This document shows positions 19,019 to 63,300 of a stretch of DNA of 64,000 nt, in pieces; positions within the stretch are counted from its first letter, which is position 1; each line of letters starts with the position of its first letter. The DNA comes from a virus. Made by a program: the position numbers and the translations under genes. The DNA lies in the IMG/VR virus record IMGVR_UViG_3300046665_000193, positions 1 to 64,000 of that record. One strand, 5' to 3'. A model generated the notes under the pieces. That model was given only the letters and a program-made list of their open reading frames with translations, made no database searches and was not told the DNA's origin.

Positions 19019-19124
19019 CCGAGTTCATCTCGTTTCTCGCAGGCTTCGGGCTGGGGATCGGCGCGACCTCAGCCTTCGTCATCCGCGCAGCACTCAAGGA
19101 CATCAAGGAACTGTCTCAGCTCAC

Positions 19125-20775: not shown

Positions 20776-20844
20776 CGACCGGGGAGGGCACAGGCTCTCC
20801 CCACCATCTCAGCTCATAAGCATCCACTGGAAAGAGAACTACAC

Positions 20845-21264: not shown

Positions 21265-21312
21265 TCCCACCAACAGCTCACACAACAGCAACCTCTTAAG
21301 GAACCATCACAC

Positions 21313-22091: not shown

Positions 22092-22094
22092 CGC

Positions 22095-22367
22095 ATGCGC
22101 TACAAAGAACTGACGGCAGCACTGAAAGCTGCAGGACATCTCGACGCCCTCAAGCTGGTCGAGGGCATGTACGTCAAGCAGAAGCGACGCCCGATGCGCA
22201 TGAGTGGTCGACACCTGACCATGGAGGATGCCGTTGCGATCCACAAACTGTATCGCTTCACGCGGCTGAACCATGGACAGATCGCCAATCAGCTCGGACT
22301 GAACATCGGTCAGGTGACGCACGTCCTGAATGCGGAAGCCTTCCCCGAGGCTGCGCAGCATGCATGA
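22095..22367 (+). CDS. Hypothetical HTH protein
   Basis: LNHGQIANQLGLNIGQVTHVL. Confidence 0.5.
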   Translation: MRYKELTAALKAAGHLDALKLVEGMYVKQKRRPMRMSGRHLTMEDAVAIHKLYRFTRLNHGQIANQLGLNIGQVTHVLNAEAFPEAAQHA

Positions 22368-22540
22368 CACCCACCGCGACCATCCCGCCCGACGCCTTCG
22401 CCCCCAACGGGTGAAGCTCGTCGAGTATCTCCTGCGCAAACGTGGTCGGTTCTACTACGGAGCCGCCGACGAGTTCATCGATCAGGTTGGCAAGTTTCAT
22501 CCTGACGTGCTGCGCGATGCCGACGCGATCCTAGAAGCGA

Positions 22541-24238: not shown

Positions 24239-24608
24239 CAAGTGCGAACCGCTTCACAAAGCTGGACCGCTGGACCTGCGCATCACTCGCGCGGGTCCGA
24301 TGATCCTGATCACCACCCTAGACGGCGACGAGGTTGTCGCTGAACAAGTCATCGCTCGCGATGGCGTCCCGTCATTCATCAAAGCATTGCGCGAGGTGGC
24401 CGGTGTCTAAGGTCCCCAACGTATTCGCGCTAAGCGCCCATGAGAACGTGCGCGTGGCTATCGACAACAACGATATCATCATCGGCGTCCCAGATCAGAA
24501 GGCCGTCGTGATCCCAGTCGTCCTGTTCGCGCACATCGTGCAGAGCATCGACGAACTCTGCATCGCAAACAACATCCTCATTGAAGAAGCGGCTCTGGTA
24601 ACTAAGCA

Positions 24609-26576: not shown

Positions 26577-26985
26577 CCCGGAAGGGTTCGTGTACATCAT
26601 CACCAACCCGGCATGGCCATCCCACTGCAAGATCGGCAAGGCACTCGTCATGAAAGACCGCGTGAAGGTCTATCAGACGGGCTCGCCTTACCGTGACTAC
26701 AGGGTAGTCGCACATGCGTTCTTCGATGATCGCAAGGCGGCTGAGGCTGAACTGCACGAGCAACTAAGGGGCCACCGCGTCGGCAAGACAGAGTGGTTCT
26801 TCATCCATCCCGATGACGCCAGCGCGATGCTGCGTCGCATCTCCCGAAGGAAGAAACGACATGAGCGAACACGATCAACGCGAATGGTCAAACGACCTCC
26901 GAAACAAGTACGGCATCGCGGAACCAATCGAACCCGAAACACTCGCGGACCTGATCCAAGACGCACGAGACGAGGCAAAGCGTGA
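26485..26985 (+). CDS. GIY-YIG family (T5orf172-like) protein
   Basis: GFVYIITNPAW...KIGKA...R...YQTGSP...EWF; start and end uncertain. Confidence 0.7.
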   Translation: MPSVKLASSTSSVARSKATRISAIAGPQRTDPEGFVYIITNPAWPSHCKIGKALVMKDRVKVYQTGSPYRDYRVVAHAFFDDRKAAEAELHEQLRGHRVGKTEWFFIHPDDASAMLRRISRRKKRHERTRSTRMVKRPPKQVRHRGTNRTRNTRGPDPRRTRRGKA

Positions 26986-27173
26986 GAGCATCTGAACTAC
27001 ACAACAAGATCACCGCGAAGATCGTCTTCCACAACAAGGCGAAGGTTGACGCGGCGAAGCTGGCACGGCGCTACATGAACTGCCACGACTTCAATGAAGC
27101 TGCCCGCTGGGCTGATGCCGCGAAGGCGCATCGGTTCGCTGCAGACAGCCTGCGGGAATTGCTCGGTCAGTGA
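26982..27173 (+). CDS. Hypothetical protein
   Basis: Coupled to exonuclease start (GTGA). Confidence 0.5.
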   Translation: MRASELHNKITAKIVFHNKAKVDAAKLARRYMNCHDFNEAARWADAAKAHRFAADSLRELLGQ

Positions 27174-27919
27174 AGGCGAAGCTCACCGTCCTGATCGACG
27201 GAGACATCATCGCCTACAAGGCCGCATGCGTGAACCAACAGGACATCGATCTCGGCGACGGGATCATCTCCTCCAAGACCAACCTCAACGGTGCACTGGA
27301 AGATGCTGAACGCATCATCGACGGCATCGCCAACAAGCTGAACGCTGACAGCATCATCGTCGGGCTCACCGGCCCGCTGATGGAGATCAGCAACCGCAAC
27401 TTCCGCAAGGAGCTGCTGCCCACCTACAAGGGCAACCGCTCGGGGCCGAAGCCGATCCTGCTGGCCAGTGTCAAAGAACACATCCGGTCGGCATACGACA
27501 CCAAGATCAAGGATGGCTTAGAGGCGGACGATACGCTGGGCATCTTGCTCACGCATCCGACGCTGATCCCCGGCAAGCGTGTTCTCGTCTCCACCGACAA
27601 GGACCTCCTGCAGATACCGGGGCGACACTACAATCCCGACAAGGAAGCCAAGCGCATGGTCACCGAAGCGCAGGGTGACTACTTCCATCTACTGCAGACC
27701 ATCACAGGCGATCCCACGGACAACTACTCAGGCTGTCCCGGCATCGGCCCTAAGCGTGCACCCGCCATCGTCGATCAGGGCTGGCCGGGCATCGTGGCTG
27801 CTTACGAGAAGAAGGGCCTCACCGAGGACGACGCGCTCGTCCAAGCCCGCTGCGCTCGCATCCTCCGACACACCGACTACGACTTCAAACTCAAGGAACC
27901 CATTCTCTGGACCCCATGA
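27170..27919 (+). CDS. 5'-3' exonuclease (gp6-like)
   Basis: LIDGD, YKGNR, LEADD, DKDL, GDPTDNYSGCPGIG. Confidence 0.93.
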   Translation: MKAKLTVLIDGDIIAYKAACVNQQDIDLGDGIISSKTNLNGALEDAERIIDGIANKLNADSIIVGLTGPLMEISNRNFRKELLPTYKGNRSGPKPILLASVKEHIRSAYDTKIKDGLEADDTLGILLTHPTLIPGKRVLVSTDKDLLQIPGRHYNPDKEAKRMVTEAQGDYFHLLQTITGDPTDNYSGCPGIGPKRAPAIVDQGWPGIVAAYEKKGLTEDDALVQARCARILRHTDYDFKLKEPILWTP

Positions 27920-28494
27920 CAGCTCCTCTCATCGGCCTCTATTCCCCCCGCGCACAGTCGGGCAAGTCCACCTCCGCACGTCACATCGCCCATCGCGCCA
28001 AGGGCGTTACCATGTCCTTCGCAGACCCGATGCGTGCAGCCATCGTGCCCATCGCCGCGCCCTTTATGGAAGGCGGGGAGGCTGAGGTCTGGCAGTGGTT
28101 CGGCGACGAGCGCAAGGACAAGGCAAAGGTTCCGCAGCTCGACGTGACGCTGCGCTTCCTGTTGCAGACCCTCGGCACCGCATGGGGCCGGGAGACGATC
28201 CACCCGGATGTCTGGGAGATGATCGCCAAAGAGACCTCTCGCAAGCACCGCAAGCGCTGCGTCACCATCATCGACGACGTTCGGTTCGAGAACGAGTACG
28301 CCATGATCAAACGGGAAGGCGGACTGCTGTTCAAGATCGAGCGACCCGACGCGCCGGTCTCGGGCAACTTCTGGCACAAGTCAGAGGCCCGGCTGGAGAA
28401 CCTGCCGTTCGACGAGACGATCATGAACGTGGGCACCGAGGCTGCACTCGTGGCGCAGATCGACGACCTCGTATTCGACTACTTCGGAGTGTGA
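27916..28494 (+). CDS. Deoxynucleoside monophosphate kinase
   Basis: QSGKST, SFADPMR, LQTLGTAWGR, IDDVRFENE. Confidence 0.88.
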   Translation: MTAPLIGLYSPRAQSGKSTSARHIAHRAKGVTMSFADPMRAAIVPIAAPFMEGGEAEVWQWFGDERKDKAKVPQLDVTLRFLLQTLGTAWGRETIHPDVWEMIAKETSRKHRKRCVTIIDDVRFENEYAMIKREGGLLFKIERPDAPVSGNFWHKSEARLENLPFDETIMNVGTEAALVAQIDDLVFDYFGV

Positions 28495-28591
28495 CTACAA
28501 AGTGGCAAGACTGAACCGTAATCAAGGCGAGGAGGGCGGCGACAATAGGTTGCCCTCCTACCCAACCAATTCGCCTTCCGTTGCACCTGAG

Positions 28592-28816
28592 GTGACGACG
28601 GAGATCATCAACTATCTGAACGCCAAATTCCCCGACACGCTCCCTCCTGCGGGCTCTGCCTACACTGAGGTGGAGCGAGCATGGGGAAGGCGCGAGGTGA
28701 TCGAGCATTTGATCTGGCGTCAGAAACAGAACGAAGAAGAGAACAATGTGCTTCGGCGGCGGATCGACTCCCCCTCCAGCGCAGGCCCCGGCACCACCGC
28801 CGCCGCCTCCGGCTGA
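28592..28816 (+). CDS. Hypothetical protein (gp6.5 position)
   Basis: YLNAKFP...GRREVIEHL; downstream of promoter motif at 28546; start uncertain. Confidence 0.5.
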   Translation: MTTEIINYLNAKFPDTLPPAGSAYTEVERAWGRREVIEHLIWRQKQNEEENNVLRRRIDSPSSAGPGTTAAASG

Positions 28817-28982
28817 TACCCCTAGCGCCCCGGTCTACAACGAGAGCAACACCGATGCGAAGAACGCGAGTTCATCCATCGAGAACTCCCGGCGTGGACG
28901 CAGCTCGCTACTCATCAAGCGTAACACCTCAGGCACCTCGACCAGCAGCGCTGACACGAGCGGCTTGAACATCCCGACATAA
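28746..28982 (+). CDS. Small virion protein, gp6.7/7.3-like, copy 1
   Basis: MCFGGG...GRSSLLIKR...GLNIPT. Confidence 0.65.
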   Translation: MCFGGGSTPPPAQAPAPPPPPPADTPSAPVYNESNTDAKNASSSIENSRRGRSSLLIKRNTSGTSTSSADTSGLNIPT

Positions 28983-28984
28983 CC

Positions 28985-29311
28985 GTGTGCACTCTCTCGA
29001 TGCCGCGCGGCTCCTTCTCCCAGAGCCAGACCGCAATTGGTCAGGTGATCAATAGGGTGCAGGAGACGCAGTACGGCGCACGCGATGCCGCCAATGCTGC
29101 ACCATCCAGTCCTGCCGCTGCCCCTTCGCAGCCCGCTGCTGCTGCACCTCAGTCCGCTGCTCAGCTCGCTATGGCGAACGGCGGCGGGGTTGCTCCCGGC
29201 ATGCAGTCGGGTGGTGCGCCAAGTTCATTCAATATCCCGCGCAAGCGCTCCCGAGGTTCCGGCACTGCGTCCGTAGCTGGTGGCGGCGTTGGGCTCGGTA
29301 TTCCAACCTAA
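28985..29311 (+). CDS. Small virion protein, gp6.7/7.3-like, copy 2
   Basis: MCT...SSFNIPR...GLGIPT. Confidence 0.55.
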   Translation: MCTLSMPRGSFSQSQTAIGQVINRVQETQYGARDAANAAPSSPAAAPSQPAAAAPQSAAQLAMANGGGVAPGMQSGGAPSSFNIPRKRSRGSGTASVAGGGVGLGIPT

Positions 29312-29323
29312 GGACCCACCATC

Positions 29324-29569
29324 ATGTGTATGGGTGGGGGCGGATCATCCGCTCCGGTAACCACACCGATGCCAACGCAGGACGCAGGCAACTCCGCTAA
29401 TGGAGCTGCCGCTGTTGCTGCTGCACCGGCACCGACCAACTCGACTACCGACACGACCACTACGCCGACCGAGACCACCGACCGTGGCGTCTCCTCACTG
29501 CGCATCAAGCGTGGCCGAGGCGCAACTAGCGCTGGCTCTAGCGGCACCGGATTGAACATCCCGACGTGA
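29324..29569 (+). CDS. Small virion protein, gp6.7/7.3-like, copy 3
   Basis: MCMGGG...GVSSLRIKR...GLNIPT; directly before portal. Confidence 0.65.
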   Translation: MCMGGGGSSAPVTTPMPTQDAGNSANGAAAVAAAPAPTNSTTDTTTTPTETTDRGVSSLRIKRGRGATSAGSSGTGLNIPT

Positions 29570-31161
29570 CGGACGAACCCGATAAGGGAACGGCACAGTC
29601 GCGCTACTCACAGCTTGAGCCCCTTCGGCTCCCGTTCCTTACTCGGGCTCGTGACTGCGCTACGCTGACCGTCCCATACCTGATGCCCCCCGAGGGCATG
29701 ACCAGCACCACTACGCTGCCCACGCCGTACCAGAGCCTTGGCGCTCGCGGCATCAGGACCCTCTCGGCAAAACTATTGCTGAGCCTATTCCCGCCTAACA
29801 CGACCTTCTTCAAGTACAGCCTCGACGACTTCTTCCTGCAGAAACTGACAGGCAAGGATGACATGCGAGGTGAGGTCGAGAAGGCACTGTCGTCTCGTGA
29901 ACGCGCCACTCTCGATGAGATGGAAGGCGCACAGATGCGTCTCGGCGCTTCAATGGCGCTGCAGCACCTTCTGGTCGCTGGCAACTTCCTCATCCACGTT
30001 CCACCTCAGGGTCGCACTCGTGGCTTCCGTCTCGACCAATTCGTGGTCAAGCGCGATGCCTCAGGTAATGTCCTTGAGATCGTCGTCAAAGAGATCGTCA
30101 GCCCGACCGTGCTGCCCGATGCTGTTGCTGCTGCCGTCAAGGCGGATGCAGTCAAGAAGCATGGCGGCTCCGAAGACAAGTCGGCTGAACTCTACACGCA
30201 TATCATTCGGCATCAAGAACACTGGGAAGTGTATCAGGAAGCGGGCGGTCTTAAGATTGCCGATACAGATGGGACATACCCACTGGATCGTTGCCCGTGG
30301 CTTCCTCTGCGTCTCGCCACTCAACCCGGCGAAGACTATGGCCGGTCGTATTGTGAAGAGTTTCTCGGTGATCTGGACAGCCTTGAAGGTTTGTCCGAAA
30401 CGCTAGTCGAAGGTTCGGCTGCAGCAGCTCGTATCGTGTTCCTCGTAAAGCCGAACGGCGTCACTCAGGTGAAGGTCGTATCGAAAGCGAAGAACGGCGA
30501 CGTGGCTGTCGGTAACGCCGAAGACGTGACAGTGATCCAAGCGCAGAAGCAGGCCGACCTCGGTGTCGCGCAGAAGCAGGCGCAGGAGATCGCACAGCGT
30601 CTGTCTTACGCATTCATGCTCAACACTGCCATCCAGCGCAGCGCAGAGCGTGTCACTGCGGAAGAGATCAAGTACATGGCGCAGGAACTCGATGATGCCC
30701 TCGGCGGCATGTACGCGCTCCTCTCGGCTGAGTTTCAGCTCCCCGTCGTGCTCCTCTTTGAGGACCGCATGGAGAAGCTGCGTCAGGTCCCGCCGATGCC
30801 CAAGGGCGTCGTCAAGCCTACGATCACCACCGGCATGGCCGCGATTGGTCGGGGCATCGATCTGCGCAACCTCCGCGCATTCACAGCCGACATCGTTCAA
30901 ACCCTCGGTCCTGAGATCGCCTTCCGCTATCTCCAGCCGACCGAATACATCAAGCGTGCTGCCGCTGCCTATGGCATCGACACTGGTGGTCTCGTCAAGC
31001 CCGACGATCAGATCGCACAGGAAGAGCAGCTCGCTAAACTTGAAGCCCTCGCACAGAACCTTGGACCTCAGGCCCTCCAGCAAATGGGTGGCATGGGCAA
31101 GGAAGTCGTGAAGGGCGCAGTCCAACAGCAAGTAGGTAACAATGGCCAAAGCCCCAGCTAA
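29566..31161 (+). CDS. Portal / head-tail connector (gp8-like)
   Basis: PYQSLGARG, GEDYGRSY, RSAERVTAEEI. Confidence 0.95.
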   Translation: MTDEPDKGTAQSRYSQLEPLRLPFLTRARDCATLTVPYLMPPEGMTSTTTLPTPYQSLGARGIRTLSAKLLLSLFPPNTTFFKYSLDDFFLQKLTGKDDMRGEVEKALSSRERATLDEMEGAQMRLGASMALQHLLVAGNFLIHVPPQGRTRGFRLDQFVVKRDASGNVLEIVVKEIVSPTVLPDAVAAAVKADAVKKHGGSEDKSAELYTHIIRHQEHWEVYQEAGGLKIADTDGTYPLDRCPWLPLRLATQPGEDYGRSYCEEFLGDLDSLEGLSETLVEGSAAAARIVFLVKPNGVTQVKVVSKAKNGDVAVGNAEDVTVIQAQKQADLGVAQKQAQEIAQRLSYAFMLNTAIQRSAERVTAEEIKYMAQELDDALGGMYALLSAEFQLPVVLLFEDRMEKLRQVPPMPKGVVKPTITTGMAAIGRGIDLRNLRAFTADIVQTLGPEIAFRYLQPTEYIKRAAAAYGIDTGGLVKPDDQIAQEEQLAKLEALAQNLGPQALQQMGGMGKEVVKGAVQQQVGNNGQSPS

Positions 31162-31287
31162 CGCCGGTTCGGAAGCCTCCTCGGTAAAGATCGAGGAAGG
31201 CACTGAAACCCCGGCAACCCCGAACACCATCGCGAAGCCGAAGACCGTCTCGACGGACAACTTCGGTAATCAGATCGAAGAGGCTTA

Positions 31288-32127
31288 ATGAGCACCGCCT
31301 CGGTCTCATTCCAGACGGCACCGACCGGCGCAGAAGCCCCGGCAGCGGACCCGACGAAGGACATCAATGCGCAAGCAACGAACCCCGCCGCGCCTGCTGA
31401 AGGGTCCAATCCCGACCGGCCTGAGTGGCTCCCGCAAAACTTCGCGACCGTCGAAGACTACGTCAAGTCCAACAACGAAGCGCGAGGAGAACTCACCCGT
31501 GCGCAGCAGGAACTCGCTAAGCTCCGAAAGAGTGACAGCGAGCAGCCCGGCGCGGGGGCAGAACAGTCTTCGCAGACCCCGGCTGAGAGAGCGGCCAACG
31601 AAGCCGTAACCAACGCTGGCCTCGACGTTTCGACGTGGCAGGCTGAGTTCAACGAGACCCGTGATGTGTCCGAAGAGGGCCGTGCGGCAATCGCTAAGGG
31701 TCTCGAAAAGCAGTTCGGCAAGGACGCTCGCGCCCTCGTGGACGACTTCATCGAAGGCCAGAAGATGCGCCTCTCCAACGTGGAGAATCAGGTGCATCAG
31801 CAGGCTGGTGGCAAGGATCAGTACGCTGCAATGATGCAGTGGGCTTCGACGAATATGTCGGCTCAGGAGATCGCTGCCTACAACACTGCCATGGGCACTG
31901 GTGACTTCAACTCGATGTCGCTCGCTGTCGATGGCTTGAAGTCTCGCTTCACCAAGGCTGTCGGCTCCGCACCGAAGCTGCTCAGCGGTGACAACTCCAT
32001 CGCCAACAACAGTGGTGGCTTCGGCTCCACGTTCGAGATGACGCAGGCCATGAAGGACCCGCGCTATCGCACCGACCCGGTCTACCGTAAGGGCGTCGAA
32101 CAGCGGGCGATGAAGTCCAACTTCTAA
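31288..32127 (+). CDS. Capsid scaffolding protein (gp9-like)
   Basis: RPEWLP, AGGKDQYAAMMQWA, AMKDPRY..DP.YR. Confidence 0.9.
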   Translation: MSTASVSFQTAPTGAEAPAADPTKDINAQATNPAAPAEGSNPDRPEWLPQNFATVEDYVKSNNEARGELTRAQQELAKLRKSDSEQPGAGAEQSSQTPAERAANEAVTNAGLDVSTWQAEFNETRDVSEEGRAAIAKGLEKQFGKDARALVDDFIEGQKMRLSNVENQVHQQAGGKDQYAAMMQWASTNMSAQEIAAYNTAMGTGDFNSMSLAVDGLKSRFTKAVGSAPKLLSGDNSIANNSGGFGSTFEMTQAMKDPRYRTDPVYRKGVEQRAMKSNF

Positions 32128-32924
32128 TGCTCCAGGGCGATTATTCTCAGCTATCGCCCAAGGCACTCGACACTTCCTTCTACGCTGTCAATCCGCACAC
32201 CTTCGGTAACTATCGCGCAGGCTACATGACCTTGTGGTCGCGCATGTCGGTTACCAAGGTGAGCGAGGCGTCGAAGCAAGTCCGCCTCGTGGTCGCTCAT
32301 CAGGATGTCTATAAGGGCATCGAAGCGGCCACGGGGGTGCCGTGGGCAGCAATCGCAATGCTGCATCTCCGCGAAGCCGGTCCTCAGGACGTAGGCCGCT
32401 GGGAATGCACACTGCACAACGGCGAACGCATCATCGGCAAGGGCACCAAGACCAAGCTCGTTCCGAAGGGCGTCGGCCCGTTCAAGTCATTCAAGGAAGC
32501 CGCCATCCATGCCATCCGGCAGGAAGGGCTCGATAAGATCGATTGGGCTAAGGACGGCATCGCGTATCTCGCGTTCGCCTCCGAGACCTTCAACGGCTTC
32601 GGCTATCGCAACAAGGGCATCCCGTCCCCGTACCTTTGGGGCGGCTCGTCCGTCCAGCAGAAGGGCAAGTACGTCAAGGATGGCGTGTTCGACCGTAACA
32701 CCATGGACCCGCAGATCGGCACCATGCCGCTCCTCAAGGTCCTCATGGACACCACCGGATACACCTTTGGCAAAACTCCTGCTGCTGCTGTGGCTGCACC
32801 TCAGCCAACCCCAGTCCCGTCCAGTCCCTCGACCCCCAGCGGCATTGATCCGCAGCGTGGGGTAGGGGCGATCCTGAACGTGGTCTATACCGCCATCCAA
32901 GCGGTTCTCAAACGAAAGAGCTAA
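32127..32924 (+). CDS. Lysozyme-family peptidoglycan hydrolase (putative endolysin)
   Basis: TGVPWAAIAMLHLREA, LHNG, FNGFGY, PSPYLWGG, GKYVKDG motifs (COG5526-like). Confidence 0.8.
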   Translation: MLQGDYSQLSPKALDTSFYAVNPHTFGNYRAGYMTLWSRMSVTKVSEASKQVRLVVAHQDVYKGIEAATGVPWAAIAMLHLREAGPQDVGRWECTLHNGERIIGKGTKTKLVPKGVGPFKSFKEAAIHAIRQEGLDKIDWAKDGIAYLAFASETFNGFGYRNKGIPSPYLWGGSSVQQKGKYVKDGVFDRNTMDPQIGTMPLLKVLMDTTGYTFGKTPAAAVAAPQPTPVPSSPSTPSGIDPQRGVGAILNVVYTAIQAVLKRKS

Positions 32925-32926
32925 CC

Positions 32927-33172
32927 ATGTATCGTCGCATCCTGCGGCGGTGCGGGCGGCTTCCCCTGTTCCGCCTCGGTGCGGCACTGGTCATCTTGAG
33001 CCAGATCATTGAGGCCCTCGACGCACTGGTCGGTCTCGACCTCGCGTCCATCCTCCCGGCGCACTACAACGTCGCCGCTATTGTCACGGCCATCGGCCTG
33101 CTCAAGATCGTCCTTAGGGGCCTCTTCGTTGTCGCTTCAATGTTCCAAACCAAACCGGAGGAGGGCAGCTAA
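32927..33172 (+). CDS. Small membrane protein (lysis-associated?)
   Basis: Two hydrophobic segments, follows endolysin. Confidence 0.5.
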   Translation: MYRRILRRCGRLPLFRLGAALVILSQIIEALDALVGLDLASILPAHYNVAAIVTAIGLLKIVLRGLFVVASMFQTKPEEGS

Positions 33173-33573
33173 TGTGGCTGCTCACCTTCGCACTCAATCT
33201 CTTCTCCAGTCCCATACTCGGCAAAGTCGCCGACTACCTCACGAAGCGCTCCAACGACCAAGCCGTCATGCACGGCCAAGACATGACCGCAGCCACGTCC
33301 ATCGTGGTCGCGCAAATCCAAGCGGAGATCGCAGCCCGTCAAGCCCAGCTCGCGTTCTCCTCGCGTCACGACAAACTCGTGGCATGGATCGTCGCGCCGT
33401 TCATCCTTCATGTGTGGATGCTCGTGCTCGACAGATGCTTCCATCTCAACTGGAACATCGAGATGCTACCCGACCCACTCAACGACTGGGAAGGTCGCAT
33501 CCTTCTATCGTTCTTCATCCTCTCGCCCGCAGCTAACCTTGCAAAGGCGGCTCTCGGGCTGGTGAAGAAGTAG
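33172..33573 (+). CDS. Membrane protein, holin-like
   Basis: Multiple hydrophobic segments; coupled TAATG. Confidence 0.5.
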   Translation: MWLLTFALNLFSSPILGKVADYLTKRSNDQAVMHGQDMTAATSIVVAQIQAEIAARQAQLAFSSRHDKLVAWIVAPFILHVWMLVLDRCFHLNWNIEMLPDPLNDWEGRILLSFFILSPAANLAKAALGLVKK

Positions 33574-33804
33574 CAACATGGCCGGTGCCTCTACAGCCTC
33601 ATCAACTGTACGCGCCGGTCCTCGCTCCATAGCGGAAAGCAACGTGCCCCTTTTAAGGGGGCGTTCAGGTCCAAGACCACCGACTAGACGAAGCCTCTTG
33701 GCTCACTCTTGATGCATCTGCGGATGCACTGAGCGTGAATAACCTTTTGCGTCTTCCGATGGCGGGTTCGAGGCCACTTCCTCAATCCACTATGGAGACT
33801 ACCA

Positions 33805-34743
33805 ATGACCGACACCGTCGTGTCCCGCACCGGCCAAGTTAACCACACTGGCGATGCACTCGCACTATTCCTCAAGGTGTTCTCGGGTGAAGTTCTCACC
33901 GAGTTCGAGCGCACCACGCTGTTCACCGACAAGCACTTCATCCGACAGATCACGTCGGGCAAGTCGGCGCAGTTCCCGCTGATCGGTAAGGCGTCCAGCC
34001 GTTACCATGTTCCCGGTCAGTGGATCGATGGCACCGTCATCGACCACGCCGAGAAGGTGATCACCATCGACGATCTGCTGATCGCTGATACGTTCATCGC
34101 CAACATCGACGAAGCCATGAACCACTACGACGTTCGCGGTCCCTACTCGCAGGAGCTGGGTCGTGAGTTGGCTCAGGCATTCGACACCAACGTCGCCCGC
34201 GTCATGGTTCTGGCGGCTCGCGCCTCCAACCCTCTGGCTGGTCGCGCTGGCGGCACCCGCATCTCCAACGCCAACATGGACACCGACAAGGACGCTCTGC
34301 GTACCTCGCTGTTCTCGGCTGCTCAGAAGCTCGATGAGAAGAACGTCCCCGCCGAAGATCGCACCGCGTTCTTCCGCCCGGCTCAGTTCTACATCATGGC
34401 TCAGGACACCACGCTCATCAACAAGTTCTACGGTGAGACGGGTGGCGATCTGGGCAAGGGCTCGCTGGAGACCGTCGCTGGCTTCCCGATTGTGAAGTCG
34501 AACAACGTGCCGTCCGCCGATGACACGCTGAACACGAACGTCCACGCCAAGTATCGCTCGGACTTCAGCAAGACCGTGGGCGTCATCTCGAACAAGATGG
34601 CCGCTGGCACCGTCAAGCTGATGGACCTCGCGATGGACGCTCAGTACGAGCCCCGCCGTCAGGGCACCTTCATGGTCGCCAAGTACGCGGTCGGCCACGA
34701 CTGGCTGCGCCCTGAGTGCGCGGTCGAACTCTACAAGGCGTAA
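33805..34743 (+). CDS. Major capsid protein (gp10-like)
   Basis: LALFLKVFSGEVLT, GKSAQFP, ITIDDLL, LRPECAVEL. Confidence 0.96.
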   Translation: MTDTVVSRTGQVNHTGDALALFLKVFSGEVLTEFERTTLFTDKHFIRQITSGKSAQFPLIGKASSRYHVPGQWIDGTVIDHAEKVITIDDLLIADTFIANIDEAMNHYDVRGPYSQELGRELAQAFDTNVARVMVLAARASNPLAGRAGGTRISNANMDTDKDALRTSLFSAAQKLDEKNVPAEDRTAFFRPAQFYIMAQDTTLINKFYGETGGDLGKGSLETVAGFPIVKSNNVPSADDTLNTNVHAKYRSDFSKTVGVISNKMAAGTVKLMDLAMDAQYEPRRQGTFMVAKYAVGHDWLRPECAVELYKA

Positions 34744-34755
34744 GCCTTCAACCCA

Positions 34756-34785
34756 GCCGGGGACCTTCGGGTCTCCGGTTTTTTC
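34756..34785 (+). terminator. T-phi-like terminator after capsid gene
   Basis: gccggggacc-ttcg-ggtctccggt plus T tract. Confidence 0.85.
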
Positions 34786-34799
34786 ATTCAAGGATCACA

Positions 34800-35396
34800 A
34801 TGGATACCACTGCGCTCGCTCCCATGACGGAGCTTGAGGCCATCAACGATATGCTCTCGCTCATCTCTGAGAGCCCGGTGGCCTCCCTTGACGAGGCATC
34901 ACGGGTCGCTGATGCACAGACTGCGGTGCAGATACTGCGCCGACAACTACGCGACACACAGGCCCGTAACTGGGACTGGAACACCGAGAGCGGTATGTGG
35001 CTCGCGCCGGATATGGACGGCAACATCGTCCTCCCGCGCAACTGCATCAAGGTCGATCCGACCGACCCGCGTCTCGACTATGTGCGCCGGGGCGACAAGC
35101 TCTGGGATCGCACCAACCACACATTCAACATCGGCAAGAAGGTCCAGCTCGACCTCGTCATGCTGCTCCCATTTGAGGACATCCCTGAGACCGCGCGTCG
35201 CTACATCAGCATCGCAGCCGGTCGCAAGTTCGAGAACCGAATGATCGGTGACGGACAGTCTCACACGATCAACGAAGCTGACGTGATGCAGGCATGGGCC
35301 ATCCTGTTGCAGGAGGAGTGTGAGAACGCCGAACTCAACGTAGTGAAGGACAGCTCCACGGTGCGCAACATTTCGCATGGTCGCTATCGGCGGTAA
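34800..35396 (+). CDS. Tail tubular protein A (gp11-like)
   Basis: TELEAINDMLSLISESPV; position after capsid. Confidence 0.9.
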   Translation: MDTTALAPMTELEAINDMLSLISESPVASLDEASRVADAQTAVQILRRQLRDTQARNWDWNTESGMWLAPDMDGNIVLPRNCIKVDPTDPRLDYVRRGDKLWDRTNHTFNIGKKVQLDLVMLLPFEDIPETARRYISIAAGRKFENRMIGDGQSHTINEADVMQAWAILLQEECENAELNVVKDSSTVRNISHGRYRR

Positions 35397-51610: not shown

Positions 51611-51940
51611 CGAGACCCGCCCCATAGCCTCGCTGACGCTCGGCTCCAGGGCGGAAGTAGGGCAAGGCTCTCTAGGAGGCCCGTACAGTGCCCTTTCACC
51701 GGCACCCTCACTGACCCTGCTGTGCACCTCAAAGAGCGCACCCTGAGCCACGCCTGCTGACCGTAGAGTGTCTCCGAAGTGCATGTGAGGTGGGTTGCGG
51801 ATAGTTGGTGAAAATCTCTGAAGTGGGGGCTCGAACCCTAAGGTGGCGCGTTTCCCCCGTGGCCCCTCGCGATCCACACGCATTGCAGGGCGATTGGCAC
51901 CGCACCTTGTCACCGCACCATGCTAAGCCATTGATATGAC
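51611..51940. other. Putative genome-end / packaging region of B
   Basis: Conserved with 9215-9545; IHF consensus at 51924-51936. Confidence 0.55.
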
Positions 51941-52477
51941 TCAGGTCGCACGGGATGATGCATCCACATTGCCCATGAAATGCAGGGGCGGGGCGCTATC
52001 GGGGCAGTGCAAGGCGTTGCGGTTCGTCCGCCTTCATCTTCATATCAGTGTATTTGCGATTGCAGCCCGCACCTTCAATGCACCTCAACAGCACGTCAGA
52101 GGCACGTTAGCGCCACGCCAGCGCAACGGCAGTGCCACCATGGGCCGCGTCTATAGTGCACGTCAGGTGCGCATGAGGTGACAGGGGCAGGGCGCTTGCA
52201 TTGTCACCACACGCCGCACCCACGTTGTCACCTCAGTGCACCTCAGATGCACGGGCAGGGCGCTATCGTGTGCCGTATGGCTTCCATTGTCCTGCAGCGT
52301 CATAGCGCCCGCCGTCACTGCGCACCTTGCCGTCATTCCACGTTAGCAGGGCCATTACAGCCACTGCGATTGCACCCAAGATAACGATTTGCTTGGCCTT
52401 CATAACTACACTTCGACTCCGAAAGCGGTGACAAAACAGTGGATTATAAAATTGTTCTGTCTACCTGCATTTTATTG

Positions 52478-56394: not shown

Positions 56395-56709
56395 ATGCGC
56401 CACCTGTTTGGAGTTATCGAACTACCGACGGAAGTCGAGCCTGACCAACTCGTTTCTCCCGACTTGCCCAACGGATATGAGACCGTAGCCGGTTGGTGGG
56501 CGACGCGAGAAACCGCTGCGCTGGAGATGCTTAGCGACCCTATAGCAACGCTTTTCGAAGACGAGGAGCATCTAATAACCATCGCGGACAAGCTTGAGGT
56601 TTTGTGGAAGTGGGTAACCGCTCCCCCGGCGTTTCAGGCAATGGGATTTAAAGTTTCGAAAGCTTTTCCCTTAGATTTGCTTCAACAATTCTATCCCCTT
56701 CACCCTTAA
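56395..56709 (+). CDS. Hypothetical protein (lysogeny region)
   Basis: Paralogue of 13493-13834; start uncertain. Confidence 0.65.
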   Translation: MRHLFGVIELPTEVEPDQLVSPDLPNGYETVAGWWATRETAALEMLSDPIATLFEDEEHLITIADKLEVLWKWVTAPPAFQAMGFKVSKAFPLDLLQQFYPLHP

Positions 56710-56834
56710 TCAGCTAAATATCCCGGCGCGGGGACGATCAATGCGCCGGGTTGCAGGGACGGGAACCAAAACTACTTGCCAAGAGTAGTTAATCTCGTTA
56801 TGGCGAATAACCAGCAACCGTAGGAGCGTACAAA

Positions 56835-57215
56835 ATGCCGACCAGAGGGACTACAACCACAATGAGTAACGTGACGAACATTGAGGACAGCGAGTGGGTT
56901 GAGAAGCTCGCTCTGGTCATAGATGAGTTTCGCAAGATCAGTCAGGACATCACAGCAAACCAAATGCTGGTCCTCCTTCGCATCGGCGAGCACCCCGGCA
57001 TCACGCAGAACAAGCTCGCGGAGAGCACGGGCCTTCGTGACGGCACCATCTCGCGCATCTGCGCCATGATGTCGGAGCGTGGGCATCAGGGCCGAGAAGG
57101 GCTCAGCGTCATATCGATCAACCCCGTCCCAAATGACTATCGCGCGAAGGGCCAGGAACTGATCGGCAACGGCAAGCGCATGTACACCAGCATCAAGAAG
57201 CTGATGAGCAAGTAA
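56835..57215 (+). CDS. MarR-like winged-helix regulator (putative repressor)
   Basis: Paralogue of 13956-14333. Confidence 0.75.
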   Translation: MPTRGTTTTMSNVTNIEDSEWVEKLALVIDEFRKISQDITANQMLVLLRIGEHPGITQNKLAESTGLRDGTISRICAMMSERGHQGREGLSVISINPVPNDYRAKGQELIGNGKRMYTSIKKLMSK

Positions 57216-57227
57216 GAGGAGCCGCAG

Positions 57228-58343
57228 TTGGCGACCTATCCTAAGGGAAACAAATTCATCACCAAGTTCATGATCGACGGGGTTCGACATACCCGGATGC
57301 ATGACACAGAAGCCGAAGGCGAAGCGTGGGAGCTGCAAAGCCGCGCGAACCTCAAACTAGGCAAAGCTATTCCAGTCGCCGAAAAGAAGATCGGTGGCAG
57401 CGACGCTGGAGCGCTCGGCAACCTTCTCCGCGAAACCGCAACCCTCCACTGGGCCAAGGGCAAGGACAGCTCAAAGTGTGAGCTGAATGCCACCACCTTC
57501 GTCAATTGGTGCGGCAAGGACATGCCCTCCCGCGACGCCTTCAAGCAGGACAACATCGACGACTTCGTCGCCTACCTCATCAACGAGCGTGAGGTATCCG
57601 GCTCGACGGTCAATCGTTACTGTTCCGCCATCCGGGTCATGGCTCAGCGGATCATCAAAAAGTCCGAAGACCTCCCCACGTTCCCAAAGTATAAAGAGAG
57701 CAGGGGCCGGTTCCGGTTCTTCTCCCATGAGGAGGAGCGGCAGATCACCGCGCTCTGGACCCTCTGGGAGCGGTACGCTGAGCTGGACTTCCTCATCTTC
57801 CTGATCGACACCGGAGCCCGCACCTACACCGAGGGACAGGCACTTAAGTGGGTCGATATCCACGCCGACCGGGCCATCTTCTGGGAGACCAAGAACGGCG
57901 GGTTCCGTGCGGTTCCGCTAAGCGAGCGGGCCAAGGCTGCTCTGGAGCGCCGCCGTAAACTAAAGGGTAACCAAGCCGGGCCGTTCAGCGACCTCGACAA
58001 GAGCCACATGCGCTGGCTCTGGGAGAAGACCCGTGGCCAGTTACCGCACCTTGAGGATGCCGTCCTGTATTGCACCCGGCACACCTACGGTTCCCGAATG
58101 GTCATGAACGGGGTGCCCCTGTCGGTCCTCAAGAAGCTGATGGGCCACTCGGACATTAAGATGACTGAGCGCTACGCCGTGTTCGAGGACAACGCCGCCT
58201 TCGCCGCAGCGCTCACCGCCCTCAACAGCAACGGCTTTGCCCCCAAGGCCGCGCCCTTGTCGGTCGTGGTCGATAACGAACCGGCACCGGGTCCCATGGA
58301 GGTTCTGGCCAAGAACCTTGAACGGGCAGGGCAAGTGCAGTAG
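57228..58343 (+). CDS. int: Tyrosine integrase
   Basis: Same catalytic motifs and length (371 aa) as 14353-15468. Confidence 0.93.
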   Translation: MATYPKGNKFITKFMIDGVRHTRMHDTEAEGEAWELQSRANLKLGKAIPVAEKKIGGSDAGALGNLLRETATLHWAKGKDSSKCELNATTFVNWCGKDMPSRDAFKQDNIDDFVAYLINEREVSGSTVNRYCSAIRVMAQRIIKKSEDLPTFPKYKESRGRFRFFSHEEERQITALWTLWERYAELDFLIFLIDTGARTYTEGQALKWVDIHADRAIFWETKNGGFRAVPLSERAKAALERRRKLKGNQAGPFSDLDKSHMRWLWEKTRGQLPHLEDAVLYCTRHTYGSRMVMNGVPLSVLKKLMGHSDIKMTERYAVFEDNAAFAAALTALNSNGFAPKAAPLSVVVDNEPAPGPMEVLAKNLERAGQVQ

Positions 58344-58429
58344 ACACCCCGGCCATGTCGTTCGGTCGCGAGACCGGGTGACAATGCGGGTGACAAAGGG
58401 GTGCGAAATGGCACCTCTTTGGTGACAAT

Positions 58430-58514
58430 GCGGGCGTGGCGGAATTGGTAGACGCAGCGGCTTTAGGTGCCGCCGCCGTAAGGTTTAGGGGTTCGAGTCC
58501 CTTCGCCCGCACCA
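58430..58514 (+). tRNA. tRNA-Leu(TAG), phage B-encoded
   Basis: 85 nt cloverleaf, GCGGC-TTTAGGT-GCCGC, CCA; compensatory D-stem change relative to A. Confidence 0.95.
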
Positions 58515-58687
58515 TCGAAGCCACGGGATTTAGGTGTTGGTGCCAAATCCTCTAGCTTTCGCAGGTGATACGCCCCGTTTCGCCGACTTCCCAAGTTGCT
58601 TCAATCACATCAGTAGATCAGTAATCTACTGCGCTTGGCAGGTTATTTTCCTGACAGGTCAAAAGGTGACAATAAGAGGTGACAAAT

Positions 58688-59514
58688 TCACCTATCGACG
58701 AGCGCTTCTGGCTGATTTGTGGATTTGGCCAGTCGCTTCAACTCATTGATCGTTTCGATTACTCGATCCATCGGCTCGACGACTGTGTATCCTGAGTTGT
58801 GTCGTCGTTGACTTACCTCTTGACGATCAACTGAGCTATACAGCTTCTCGACAAATCCGATATTTCTGATTGCGACTCCGACGGAGTGTCGATCCTCGGC
58901 CCTCAGCACCAAGCCACCACTGTTACCGGGATAGGTTGGACAATCGATGATGATCTTGTTGCTCGGCGGCTTGCCAGCTACGATACCCGAGCGCAGCAGC
59001 GGGTATCCTCGGTCAAGCGCATCTTCCTTTTCAGCGAGTGAGGTTGGGTAGCCCATCATGAAGATCGGCTCCCCCGGTATCACCGACGCATACAAGGCGG
59101 TCATGCTAAGAGGCGTACCTTGCAGGTATGTCGCCGGGTCGTAACCAATTTGAGTGACGCCTTCGACGAGGTCCATTCGATACCGATTAACCCCCGCATC
59201 AGGCTGAGGTCTCATCGTTCCAATTCGACAGACGGCCACATCGGTGAGACCATCGGGATGCCTGCAAAAATTACCGTCTGCAAAAAGCCTCGGACTGTCG
59301 AGCGAATGCTTGACTGTCTTAGTGAGCGTTACACTATCGAGTGCGGTGATTATCACCGGATCAGTGAAGAGTTCTAATTTGTTTTTTAACAGAACATGCG
59401 CTGCCGAAACGAGATAGACGTTCTCGTTGTCGTAGAGATGGACCCGCTTCCTGTTGTGCCTTTTATCTCGATGAGGGCTGGGTAAGATAAGTAGTTGAGG
59501 TCCCTATTCGGCAC
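58688..59514 (-). pseudogene. Trypsin-like serine protease, frameshifted at 59443-59445 (or sequencing error)
   Basis: YLVSAAHVL (His), TDVAV (Asp), PGNSGG (Ser) in one frame; N-terminus GTG 59514 ...IEIKGTTGSG in another frame, joined by adding one G. Confidence 0.75.
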
Positions 59515-59530
59515 GAGTACGCCCCCAAAA

Positions 59531-59615
59531 TGGTGCCCGGCGAGGGACTCGAACCCCCACACCTTTCAGCGACGGTACCTAAAACCGTTGCGTCTACCAA
59601 TTCCGCCAGCCGGGC
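59531..59615 (-). tRNA. tRNA-Leu(TAG) of element X
   Basis: Acceptor GCCCGGC/GCCGGGC, anticodon arm ACGGT-TTTAGGT-ACCGT, GTTCGAGTC, CCA. Confidence 0.95.
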
Positions 59616-59869
59616 ACGGGGCATTCCGATACACAATTGAGCGGTGGATGTCTCGACATAATCCACTGTTCGTCGTATTGGCGTCACCGGGTGACAAATC
59701 AGGTGTGAAATGGGTGACATTTTGCACCTGATGATGACAGTGCAGGTATCGCCGATCTAAATAAGCTCAGCGATTACGGGAGCTTAGGCGTCTCACGGTT
59801 TTGCGCCACGAGATTTAGGTTCCCGCGTCACTTATACTACGATTAGCAACTACATACTAACATATTGAG

Positions 59870-59900
59870 GGCAGTGCAGAAATGCGCTGCCTTTTCTTTT
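59870..59900 (+). terminator. Rho-independent terminator at C left end
   Basis: GGCAGTGCA-GAAA-TGCGCTGCC plus T tract. Confidence 0.8.
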
Positions 59901-59990
59901 GCGTGCTCATACTACGATAAGAAGGTGGATATGGGTGACACCCGCTTTGGTGACAGTGGAGCGGTGACAAAGTGACAATCAGGAGAACAC

Positions 59991-60677
59991 ATGCAGAACT
60001 ACACAAAGGCCCGCGAGTGGAACGGCAAGGCGCTTAAGGGCGCGTGGGAATGCACCATCAAGATCGATGGCTGGCGTCTGCTTTGGAACGGTAACGAATG
60101 GGTGAGCAGGGCCAACAAGCCCATTCCGAACATCCCGCCGTGGCTCCCCGGCATGGCCACCGACTTCGAAGTGTTCCTCGGATCGCTCGCGCTGACCTCT
60201 CGCGCCTGCAAGACGAAGCACCTCAAGCCCGACACGCCGCGCGTCAAATACGACCACCTCTACAGTCTGGTTCCGCTGGACCCTCGGCTGGTCATGCCCG
60301 GCCTGATCGACCCGACCGCTGAGCAAATCGCCGAGCTGCTGGCTGACGTGAACCGGCGCGGGTTCGAGGGGCTGGTGCTCCGACAAGGCGACCGCTGGAT
60401 CAAAGTGAAGCCAGCCCAGACCCACGATGTGCTGATCACCGGCTACGGCGCTGGCGAGGGTAAGCATGAGGGTCGGCTCGGCTACCTGACCTCCGCGTTC
60501 GGCGACGTGGGCACCGGCTTCACCGACGAAGAGCGCGAAGAGCTGTGGGCCGAGGCGCTGGCCGGGACGCTGGTTGGCCAGACCATGGAGGTCGGCTGCA
60601 TGCACCTGACCGAGGACGGCCAGTTCCGACACCCGCGCTTTGAGCGCATCCGCCATGACAAAATCGCAGAGCGATGA
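59991..60677 (+). CDS. Compact ATP-dependent DNA ligase
   Basis: TIKIDGWR motif I, FEGLVLR motif IV, WIKVK motif V, OB fold VGTGFTDEER...RHPRF. Confidence 0.85.
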   Translation: MQNYTKAREWNGKALKGAWECTIKIDGWRLLWNGNEWVSRANKPIPNIPPWLPGMATDFEVFLGSLALTSRACKTKHLKPDTPRVKYDHLYSLVPLDPRLVMPGLIDPTAEQIAELLADVNRRGFEGLVLRQGDRWIKVKPAQTHDVLITGYGAGEGKHEGRLGYLTSAFGDVGTGFTDEEREELWAEALAGTLVGQTMEVGCMHLTEDGQFRHPRFERIRHDKIAER

Positions 60678-60850
60678 CGCGCTGGCAGGACGAGGCGAAC
60701 GCGCACTGGGACCGGATACGGGAGCGCATCAGGGCCAACCCAACGATCATCAAACCACAGCGGCTTGCTCACGAGGAAGCCGAAGACCTTCGCCGCCAAC
60801 TGCAGGCGGCACACGCCGAGATCAACAGACTACGCAAGGGGACCGCATGA
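60674..60850 (+). CDS. Small coiled-coil hypothetical protein
   Basis: MTRWQDEANAHW..., ATGA-coupled at both ends; read by hand. Confidence 0.5.
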   Translation: MTRWQDEANAHWDRIRERIRANPTIIKPQRLAHEEAEDLRRQLQAAHAEINRLRKGTA

Positions 60851-63300
60851 CGGCAGCAGCAGTGCAACTGAGGGAAGAAGACCTCGAACATCAGGCCCAG
60901 TTCAAGGGCGCAAAGCGGGTAAGGGATCAGGTCGCAAAGGCAAAGCAGCGCGGGCTGGGGGCTGACACTCCGGGCGGCGTGGCGCTTATGAAGCGGGCAG
61001 TCCAGCCGCTCGCCAAGCTGATCGAGCAGACCATCCTCGACGCCCGGTCAGGCAAGGCGGGTCGCCGCCACATCGCCATCGCCACCATGGAGAAGCTGCC
61101 CGCCGAGGTGCTGGCCTATCTGACGGTGCGCGAGTGCATCAGCGCGGCCATCCAGATCGCGCCGCTGACGAACACCGGGCTCAAGCTGGGCAGTTCCATT
61201 GAGGAGGAGCTGCGGCTGCAGGCGTTCGATGAGCAGGCACCGGACCTCTACCACACCATCATGCGCCGCCTTAAGGAACGTGGCGCTGGCGCTGGGCATG
61301 CCCGCAAGGTGTTCGTGTTCGCGGCCAACAAGCCCGACACCAACGTCGAGCTGCCGACCATCGCCAAGACGGACAAGCTGCACATCGGCATCCGCTTGAT
61401 CGAGCTGCTGATCGAGGCCACCGGGTTCATCGAGCCGGTCACCGTCCGCATGGGCAAGACCAAGACCCGCACCATCATCCGCCCGACCGAGACCGTGGCG
61501 AAATGGATGGAGGACCGGAACCTCACCGCCGAGCTGCTGAGCCCTCACTATGCGCCCATGGTGGTGCCTCCGAAGGACTGGGAAGGCGTGAAGGGTGGCG
61601 GCTACATCAGCCCCGACTTCAAGCAACTCTCGCTGGTCAAGCGGTGCACCAAGAAGCAGCACAAGGAGGTGATGGCGCGGGCTGACCTGTCACAGGTGCT
61701 GCGTGCCCTCAACGCCGTCCAGCGCACCGCGTGGGCGATCAACACCGACGTGCTCGATGTCATGAACGAGGTCTGGGACAAGAGCTACGAGGTGGCGATG
61801 CCCAGCCGGGACGATCTGCTGGTGCCACCGTATCCTGCCGGTCACGTCGTCGCCGAGACGCCGGAAGAGGCATGGGCCAACGTCCACCCCGACGCCAAGA
61901 AGGCTTGGATGCGCGGCGCTCGCAAGGTCTACGAAGGCAATGCGTCGAGCCGTGGCAAGCGCATGGGCATCTCGCAGATCATCCACACCGCCAAGACGCT
62001 GGCCGGTGAGCCTGAGGTGTTCTTCCCGCACCAGCTCGACTTCCGGGGCCGGGCCTACGCAGTGCCCATCGGGCTCAACCCACAGGGCAGTGACCACGCC
62101 AAGGCGCTGCTGCACTTTGCGCACGGCAAAGCGATCACCACGCCCCGCGCTGCGGGCTGGCTCGCGATCAACGGTGCCAACCTCTACGGTTACGACAAGG
62201 CCGCGTTCGCCGACCGCATCGCATGGGTCGAGGAGCGAGAGGAGCAGATCAAGTACACTGCACGGTGCCCGCTGGCTGACCTCTGGTGGACTGATGCGGA
62301 CAAGCCGTGGTGCTTCCTCGCTTGGATTTTCGAGTATGCGAAATTCCTGGGGGAAGGTTATGGGTTCGTCTCGCGGTTCGTCTGCAGTGTGGACGGCTCG
62401 TGCAACGGGCTGCAGCACTTCTCGGCCATGCTGCGTGATCCCATCGGCGGCGCTGCCGTCAACCTCGTGCCCGGTGAGCTGCCTGCTGACATCTACCAGC
62501 GCGTGGCTGATCGCGTCATCGAGAAGCTGAAAGAGGAGGGCGATGAGTGGGTGCCCCGTGGCTGGCTGGACTTCGGCATCAACCGCAAGACCACCAAGCG
62601 CCCGGTCATGGTGCTGCCCTACGGGGGCACGTTCAAGAGCTGCATGGAGTACGTCCGCGAGGCCGTAGGTGAGCAGATCAATGACGGCAAGGAGAACCCG
62701 TTCGGTGATGAGCTGGGCAAGGCAACCGCCACGCTGGCTCGCAACGTATGGGACAGCATCGGCGACGTTGTCGTGGCCGCTCGCACGGCGATGGACTGGT
62801 TCCAAAAGTGTGCCCGCGTCGCGGCTAAGGCTGGGGTGCCGCTGATCTGGACGACACCGTCAGGCTTCCCCGTGTTCCAGAGCTACATGGACACGACCAG
62901 CCGCCGCGTGAAGACTCGGCTGCAGGGCTCGCTCGTCTTCCTGTCGCTGTCCGAGGACACTGACAAGATCGACGCCGGGCGGCAGGCGCTGGCTGTATCG
63001 CCCAACGCGGTGCACTCGCTCGATGCCTCGGCCATGGTGCTGACCATCAACCTCTGCCTCGACAACGCCGTCGAGCAGTTCGCTATGGTGCACGACAGCT
63101 ATGGCACCGTCGCCGCCGACATGGACATGCTCGCCGCCTGCCTCAGGCATGCGTTCGTTGACATGTACGTGGAACATGACGTGCTCGCCGAGTTCCTCGC
63201 CGGGCTCCCCGAAGAGGTGAGGGCGCAGTGCCCGCCACCACCGCCCAAGGGTTCGCTGGACATCCGCAAGGTGATCGACAGCGAGTTCTTCTTTGCCTAG
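60847..63300 (+). CDS. Single-subunit T7-like RNA polymerase
   Basis: DGSCNGLQH, RKTTKRPVMVLPYG, VHDSYG; start aligned to B copy. Confidence 0.97.
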   Translation: MTAAAVQLREEDLEHQAQFKGAKRVRDQVAKAKQRGLGADTPGGVALMKRAVQPLAKLIEQTILDARSGKAGRRHIAIATMEKLPAEVLAYLTVRECISAAIQIAPLTNTGLKLGSSIEEELRLQAFDEQAPDLYHTIMRRLKERGAGAGHARKVFVFAANKPDTNVELPTIAKTDKLHIGIRLIELLIEATGFIEPVTVRMGKTKTRTIIRPTETVAKWMEDRNLTAELLSPHYAPMVVPPKDWEGVKGGGYISPDFKQLSLVKRCTKKQHKEVMARADLSQVLRALNAVQRTAWAINTDVLDVMNEVWDKSYEVAMPSRDDLLVPPYPAGHVVAETPEEAWANVHPDAKKAWMRGARKVYEGNASSRGKRMGISQIIHTAKTLAGEPEVFFPHQLDFRGRAYAVPIGLNPQGSDHAKALLHFAHGKAITTPRAAGWLAINGANLYGYDKAAFADRIAWVEEREEQIKYTARCPLADLWWTDADKPWCFLAWIFEYAKFLGEGYGFVSRFVCSVDGSCNGLQHFSAMLRDPIGGAAVNLVPGELPADIYQRVADRVIEKLKEEGDEWVPRGWLDFGINRKTTKRPVMVLPYGGTFKSCMEYVREAVGEQINDGKENPFGDELGKATATLARNVWDSIGDVVVAARTAMDWFQKCARVAAKAGVPLIWTTPSGFPVFQSYMDTTSRRVKTRLQGSLVFLSLSEDTDKIDAGRQALAVSPNAVHSLDASAMVLTINLCLDNAVEQFAMVHDSYGTVAADMDMLAACLRHAFVDMYVEHDVLAEFLAGLPEEVRAQCPPPPPKGSLDIRKVIDSEFFFA

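Follow-up and report, generated by a model that had tools for sequence, protein, structure and literature searches.

Element X, ~1.3 kb in length, is a genuine insertion that interrupts the tRNA-Leu gene of a soil bacterium within its anticodon loop. It is probably a CIME-like cassette derived from a phage, one that the integrase and excisionase of the phage family may excise, letting it travel with a phage. It lies in a window of 64 kb, the whole stretch of DNA that was analyzed, which forms the first part of a 78,980-bp record that contains no host DNA. X (~1.3 kb) extends from 58527 to 59820 when both cores are included and from 58536 to 59811 between them. The core, GATTTAGGT, occurs three times in the window (at 15652, 58527, and 59812) versus a chance expectation of 0.08, and the proposal of a preliminary description of this DNA, that X is bounded by the core of the prophages, is thereby confirmed. 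At the left core (58527–58535, + strand), the P side of phage B is joined to X; at the right core (59812–59820, + strand), X is joined to the P′ side of phage C. The GC content of X is 52%, versus 60% in the phages. Its sole real ORF, on the – strand, encodes a Trypsin_2 protease, and its remaining ORFs have no Pfam match. A survey of the ORFs and Pfam matches of X found no recombinase, integration, excision, or transfer genes, nor any remaining fragments of phage genes; the protease is thus the only gene, and X had rightly been described as lacking a recombinase. The element is also compact: the stop codon of the protease is 8 nt or less from the last P′ site.

The insertion is seen most plainly where no phage adjoins it. 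Logan contigs of four runs, one of isolate size (6.9 Mb) and three from soil or plant metagenomes, were aligned on positions 56500–61500 of the window. A 166,630-bp contig of the isolate carries 58526–59823 with no mismatch and with one extra A, which repairs the reading frame of the protease. In this contig, X has neither prophage B nor prophage C beside it; instead, it lies between the two halves of a tRNA-Leu(TAG), the 5′ half preceding the left core and the 3′ half following the right one. The left flank ends in ...GCGGGCGTGGCGGAATTGGTAGACGCGCT, and on the right GATTTAGGTTCC is followed by 16 nt and then by the T arm and the acceptor end. Deletion of X and one core from the contig yields an 85-nt tRNA-Leu(TAG) that is accepted by ARAGORN. 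Because its removal restores a perfect tRNA, X is an integrated element, and ancestral host DNA is excluded. Pieces of X were also found at 100% identity in the three soil or plant metagenomes. Among the assembled contigs of the four runs, neither a circle joint (...CCACGAGATTTAGGTGTTGG...) nor an empty-site joint was listed; such contigs drop rare forms, and those of the metagenomes leave 59673–59839 uncovered. L043, considered as a candidate for the empty B-C junction, proved to be the attP of a free C-type phage and was rejected.

Two alternatives to a mobile cassette had been named at the outset: that X is fixed DNA in prophage-free relatives, and that its homologues always belong to a larger, integrase-bearing island. 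The results were mixed. X does occur in a genome that lacks a prophage at the site, yet it is inserted there, splitting the tRNA, and is not ancestral. One homologue, of its protease, resides inside an integrase-bearing prophage.

The 22-nt stretch composed of the tRNA 5′ half and the core is also the left junction of the related T7-like prophages L051 and L072 and of the unrelated L058 and L059. In the latter two, which are isolate viral records (L058:1426 and L059:378), the same anticodon-loop core forms the left junction of another element family, the arms of which consist of repeated CGCAAnnGCAGAC-type motifs, not GTGACA. Since the arms differ at a shared core, it appears that several unrelated integrases target the loop of tRNA-Leu(TAG).

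In the window, X is embedded in a phage array. Unit A, which precedes the core at 15652, is the right part of a T7-like phage and has an integrase, a P arm, and a tRNA-Leu(TAG) at its end. Unit B is a full unit of 42.9 kb; its portion adjoining X (57228–58514, + strand) comprises the integrase (57228–58343), the P arm, and a phage-borne tRNA-Leu(TAG) (58430–58514). Unit C, after X, is the left 19 kb of another phage unit, with its P′ arm at 59821–59985 (+ strand). The three units are 78–92% identical to one another. They can be related to G001 and G002, complete phage records that are bounded by DTRs and have a terminal repeat of 127 nt each: positions 1–33623 are of the G002 type (93–99% identity, with 15840–33623 at 99%, the L044 type), 33626–58535 are of the G001 type (the L043 type; 97–99% identity, continuing across the terminal-repeat junction at 34740–34865), and 59805–78980 are of the G001 type at 99.3% identity. 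The two copies of G001 segment 42494–42858 in the record are just 95.6% alike. The non-identity of the units favors a tandem prophage array over a clonal concatemer. In either case, X is joined to phage DNA at its left and right ends, as would be expected had phages accreted at the two att sites of a resident CIME. Within unit B, the switch from G002 to G001 occurs at 33623–33626, where a variable stretch of ~100 nt is missing. The 127-nt terminal repeat is present once inside this unit (34740–34865), as expected if the genome circularized through its repeats before integration.

The arms of X were compared with those of the phages. The P′ arm (58536–58687, + strand) has an atypical GTTGG start and three arm-type sites: CCTGACAGG at 58650–58658, which is degenerate, GGTGACAAT at 58665–58673, and GGTGACAAA at 58678–58686. 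The last of these is a hairpin just past the stop codon of the protease. Measured from the core, TGACA is found at +125, +140, and +153 in X and at +124, +139, +153, and +161 in B and C; the spacing of (C/G)TGACA in the left arm had been said to match that of B and C, and it does so within 1 nt. The positions of the P′ sites are also the same within 1 nt in the distant relatives L046–L048, L051, and L072, among which identity falls to 72% for DNA or 44% for the integrase. The arm consensus, GGTGACAA, occurs 19 times in the window (1.7 expected), and three of these occurrences are inside X. When the whole P′ length (180 nt) was considered, the likeness between X and the phages was no better than that of shuffled sequence; only the ~60-nt block of sites aligns. 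The GTTGG half-site to the right of the left core had been offered as a caveat, and it is indeed atypical: all of the T7-like relatives begin with T at this point (TCC, TCT, TTC, or TGT). Additional clusters of GGTGACAA, with four sites each on both strands, were observed far from att at 9499–9961 and 51907–52434, in the early regions of A and B; they may be sites for the arm-binding domain of the integrase or for a regulator.

The P arm of X (59686–59745, + strand) contains three sites, GGTGACAAA at 59690–59698, GGTGACATT at 59713–59721, and GATGACAGT at 59733–59741, and an inverted repeat (59698–59712 and 59718–59732). It is colinear, with zero net indels, with the P arms of A, B, L044, and L046–L048, in agreement with the alignment reported earlier. 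However, its sites are located at –120, –97, and –77 from the core, versus –148, –136, and –104 in A, B, and C. The arm is thus 27–28 nt nearer to the core, and out of helical phase, because the phages have their 85-nt tRNA in this interval and X has an unrelated 66-nt spacer. This spacer (59746–59811, + strand) ends in GCCACGA as in B (GCCACGaGATTTAGGT vs. GCCACGgGATTTAGGT), a likeness that had been pointed out before; the phages have 97 nt (the tRNA and 12 nt) in its stead. The notion that the spacer (~66–70 nt) is a decayed phage tRNA on the + strand was rejected: its alignment equaled those of shuffled controls (z ~0), and an Rfam match was absent. Overall, X has two degenerate sites among its six, lacks the fourth P′ site, and shows only GGTGTGAAA at the middle P-site position of the phages; of the arm sites that do not vary among the active phages, three out of four are perfect in it. 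The claim that X copies the architecture of the phage attP is supported for the core and both blocks of arm sites; the distance between the P arm and the core is a correction to it.

X carries a replacement tRNA-Leu(TAG) at 59531–59615 (– strand), which had been correctly placed on the opposite strand. It is well formed, scoring 51.4 bits versus the Rfam tRNA model; that of phage B scores 53.8 bits. Its anticodon stem-loop, ACGGT-TTTAGGT-ACCGT, is missing the bases that flank the att core. With the tRNA of the Rhizobium phage RHEph01 it shares 84% identity, its orientation, a GCCC... acceptor stem, and the type of variable arm, whereas the tRNAs of phages A and B copy the acceptor stem of the host. 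In these phage replacement tRNAs (15555–15639 and 58430–58514), the host acceptor sequence GCGGGCG is accompanied by an anticodon stem recoded to GCGGC/GCCGC; the recoding removes the bases flanking the core, in line with the account of Paadamvirus phages by Ford et al. Between the 5′ end of the X tRNA and the P arm is a spacer (59616–59685, no strand assigned) that is presumed to be the promoter region of the tRNA and that is indel-free in the relative represented by P0128 (see below).

The trypsin-like serine protease gene (PF13365) occupies 58688–59514 on the – strand, with a GTG start codon at 59514–59512 and its stop at 58688. In the window, the loss of 1 nt near 59441 (TT to T, read on the coding strand) shifts the frame of this gene; the loss is either a sequencing indel or a true mutation that inactivates the gene. 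Neither the isolate contig nor a contig from a leaf-litter metagenome shows it. The intact protein is the 275-aa P0003, recorded on a 3.6-Mb contig; it scores 33.5 bits against PF13365, above the cut-off of 27.6, while the 222-aa ORF of the window scores 26.3 bits, below it. The protease assigned to the – strand in the preliminary description is thus a Trypsin_2 protease, but the 222-aa ORF is only the tail of the 275-aa gene. His40, Asp92, and Ser199 are invariant in the homologues. The protein matches weakly to a candidate single-gene defense family, PDC-S45 (4e-8), and to an unannotated PHROG; a role in defense or exclusion is a guess.

Two homologues place this gene in context. One, 39% identical (E 3e-54), is located in a T7-like provirus of Bradyrhizobium sp. 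83012, directly downstream of int and on the opposite strand. The other end of that provirus is an attL in the same half of the tRNA, with P′ sites exactly at the positions found in X (L049, L051). The other homologue, P0128, was called as a gene on a Logan contig of 1452 bp; its protease is only 43% identical to that of X. Residues 1–37 result from reading through the P arm, the spacer, and the tRNA, and 26 of these 37 match the corresponding reading of X without an indel. This match implies ~85–88% DNA identity in a non-coding stretch next to a gene that has diverged strongly; the arm module is thus far better conserved than the cargo. The shared conservation could reflect the tRNA promoter or a recent exchange of the module.

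Further relatives of X were sought with a protease profile and by other means. In genome contigs, the best match to the profile had 41% identity and no tRNA nearby; viral contigs returned nothing, or the Bradyrhizobium provirus alone; and in metagenome contigs the identities did not exceed 43%. A tblastn search of plasmids and phage records for X-like cassettes had no match, and a search with a degenerate P-arm pattern found none. An exact search of viral contigs with an 18-mer of the left junction gave two matches, both attributable to chance. The pseudo-ORF over the P′ arm had no homologue, and the one over the P arm and tRNA had P0128 as its sole real one. That homologues are often on contigs of 1.3–1.6 kb was not taken as evidence, as the contigs of this collection are short anyway. 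Distant homologues of the protease (31–36% identity) are found just downstream of a tRNA-Arg(TCG) in two soil metagenome contigs (L019:1444–3133 and L027:144–1502), and the family may often be cargo of tRNA-linked islands.

Each part of X (the arms, the type and orientation of the tRNA, and the protease) has a counterpart in a full phage, and X therefore looks like a reduced phage. Its ancestor would have been a temperate T7-like phage, related to Paadamvirus, that integrated into tRNA-Leu(TAG) and was reduced to its att arms and terminal cargo, i.e., the replacement tRNA-Leu(TAG) and the protease gene. X would be such a phage minus all that lay between the P′ arm and the protease, the integrase included. 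Situated in the anticodon loop of the host tRNA-Leu(TAG) and flanked by 9-bp core repeats, it would supply its own tRNA in place of the split host gene. The core at both of its junctions would allow incoming phages to integrate on either side (accretion), giving rise to the array ...A-B-X-C.... Lacking an integrase, X moves, if at all, only by the enzyme of a neighboring phage. Presumably, the family integrase, together with an excisionase, would excise X alone or with the neighboring prophage, and X would then travel with the phage. The mobility of X is plausible. The reading of X as a CIME-like reduced phage is favored by the geometry of its P′ sites, which is kept within 1 nt though the integrases are only 44% identical. 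Against its mobility are the GTTGG half-site, the shifted P arm, the degeneracy of two of the six sites, and the absence of the fourth P′ site. That X is 100% identical in the isolate and in all three metagenomes would suit a fixed resident of the chromosome as well.

The main rival to the CIME-like reading is that X is an inert scar of a prophage that decayed in place and was retained for its working tRNA-Leu(TAG) and perhaps for a useful protease. Its arms would then survive by chance or youth, with no recombination, and phages would use the leftover cores as attB-like targets. The scar is a possibility that we rate as fairly unlikely. It would accommodate the atypical GTTGG beside the left core, the shifted P arm, the degenerate and missing sites, the identical sequence in the isolate and the three metagenomes, the frameshift in the window copy of the protease, and the homologue that adjoins int inside a full prophage. 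However, a random deletion of ~40 kb would rarely stop just a few bases short of the last arm site without leaving any debris of genes; of the four sites that do not vary among active phages, X has three in perfect form; and a relative whose protease is just 43% identical shows no indel in the P arm and spacer. At the other extreme, X may be an active minimal hitchhiker, which would leave with an adjacent prophage or enter a phage attP, be packaged as a phage::X cointegrate, and be delivered to new hosts. The cointegrate would be ~3% longer than the phage genome, and X would stay in tRNA-Leu when the phage exits alone; its spare tRNA would make the disruption of the host gene harmless, and the protease may serve in defense or exclusion. 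We consider so active a lifestyle doubtful.

Two further explanations concern the record itself. X could be a passenger in the attP of a G001-type phage, with the cointegrate replicated and packaged, such that the contig represents replicative or concatemeric phage DNA. Indeed, 34740–78980 is colinear with complete G001 (1 to 42858), with X exactly at attP; this segment is preceded by the right end of G001 and the 127-nt terminal repeat; and the 79-kb record has no host DNA. Such an origin is nevertheless improbable: the copies of G001 segment 42494–42858 are 95.6% alike, identity to G001 is 97–98.7% before X and 99.3% after it, and unit B is a G002/G001 mosaic, so that the non-identical units suit tandem prophages better. 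Finally, X could be a piece of ancestral host DNA that lies between a pair of distinct attB sites, or the B-X-C joints could be assembly artifacts; both are extremely improbable. The low GC content of X (52% vs. 60% in the phages) and the absence of host flanks from the record would be in keeping with these ideas. However, host DNA is contradicted by the isolate, where X interrupts a tRNA gene that its removal makes perfect, and by the phage type of the arms of X; as for artifacts, an assembler would not be misled by a core of only 9 bp, and X was independently confirmed at 100% identity.

T7-like phages are known from textbooks as lytic viruses; temperate ones that integrate into tRNA-Leu have been described only recently. 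The occurrence of X both alone and in a phage array shows that the att system of these phages supports accretion, and possibly cis-mobilization, as in ICEs and CIMEs, and that a unit of 1.3 kb suffices for the permanent replacement of a tRNA gene of the host. A mobile X would rank among the smallest phage hitchhikers and offer a simple test system, with just one gene, one tRNA, and a pair of att sites. An immobile X would be a clean example of a prophage scar fixed through the dependence of the host on its tRNA.

How does X compare with known systems? The phage satellites P4, PICI, PLE, and cf-PICI are elements of 5–20 kb that encode an integrase and regulators of their own, as well as functions in packaging or interference. 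X resembles them in its phage-type att site and in that it may depend on a helper phage; in contrast to them, it has no integrase and no genes for regulation, packaging, or interference. CALINs and MITEs are non-autonomous "hitchers" that arise by loss of the recombinase (PMC11389934). Like X, they keep their cis sites, have lost the gene for the enzyme, and need the enzyme of a relative. However, they use attC/IntI or transposase ends, whereas X has lambda-type core-plus-arm sites: its ends are a 9-bp core and directly repeated GTGACA arm sites, not the attC of an integron cassette or CALIN.

The att system of X has a closer parallel in Paadamvirus. In the Rhizobium phages vB_RleA_TRX32-1 and RHEph01, the att core is the 12-bp CAGATTTAGGTT in tRNA-Leu, and these phages bring a complete replacement tRNA-Leu without the att motif (PMC8631192). 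The order in RHEph01 is MarR, tRNA-Leu(TAG) (–), integrase (+), three GTGACAC repeats, GATTTAGGT, P′ repeats, and RNA polymerase; the portion from the tRNA through the integrase and GTGACAC arms to GATTTAGGT equals the right half of X with an integrase added. X and the Paadamvirus attP thus share the core GATTTAGGT in tRNA-Leu, which in X lies in the anticodon loop and is repeated at both ends, a full replacement tRNA-Leu(TAG) without the core-flanking bases, a tRNA strand opposite to the att arms, and GTGACA-type repeats on both sides. They differ in that X has no phage genes and no integrase by its attP, there being just 70 nt between its tRNA and P arm, and in that its arm consensus, GGTGACAA, is of the type of the window phages, versus GTGACAC in RHEph01.

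CIMEs and their tandem accretion were defined for ICESt1/ICESt3-type elements of streptococci (PMC5704250). Like X, CIMEs have lost the integrase and transfer genes but kept attL and attR, derive from an autonomous element of the same site, and form tandems with incoming autonomous elements that integrate into their att sites. X correspondingly has attL and attR flanks, has no integration, excision, or transfer genes of its own, and stands in tandem with the integrase-bearing B and with phage C. It differs from CIMEs in its putative helper, which is a temperate T7-like phage and not an ICE or IME, and in its target, which is a tRNA anticodon loop and not the 3′ end of a gene, and for which it carries the required complete replacement tRNA. 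The preliminary description had presented X as a discrete, non-autonomous cassette of a new class. The cassette is integrase-less, has the core and both arms, and stands alone in a split tRNA-Leu; it is not a new class, however, as X fits the published framework of CIMEs and accretion (PMC5704250) combined with the att system of Paadamvirus (PMC8631192). The most suitable classification of X is that of a CIME-like variant associated with temperate T7-like phages; its novel features are that its putative helper is T7-like, that its target is an anticodon loop, and that it brings a full replacement tRNA.
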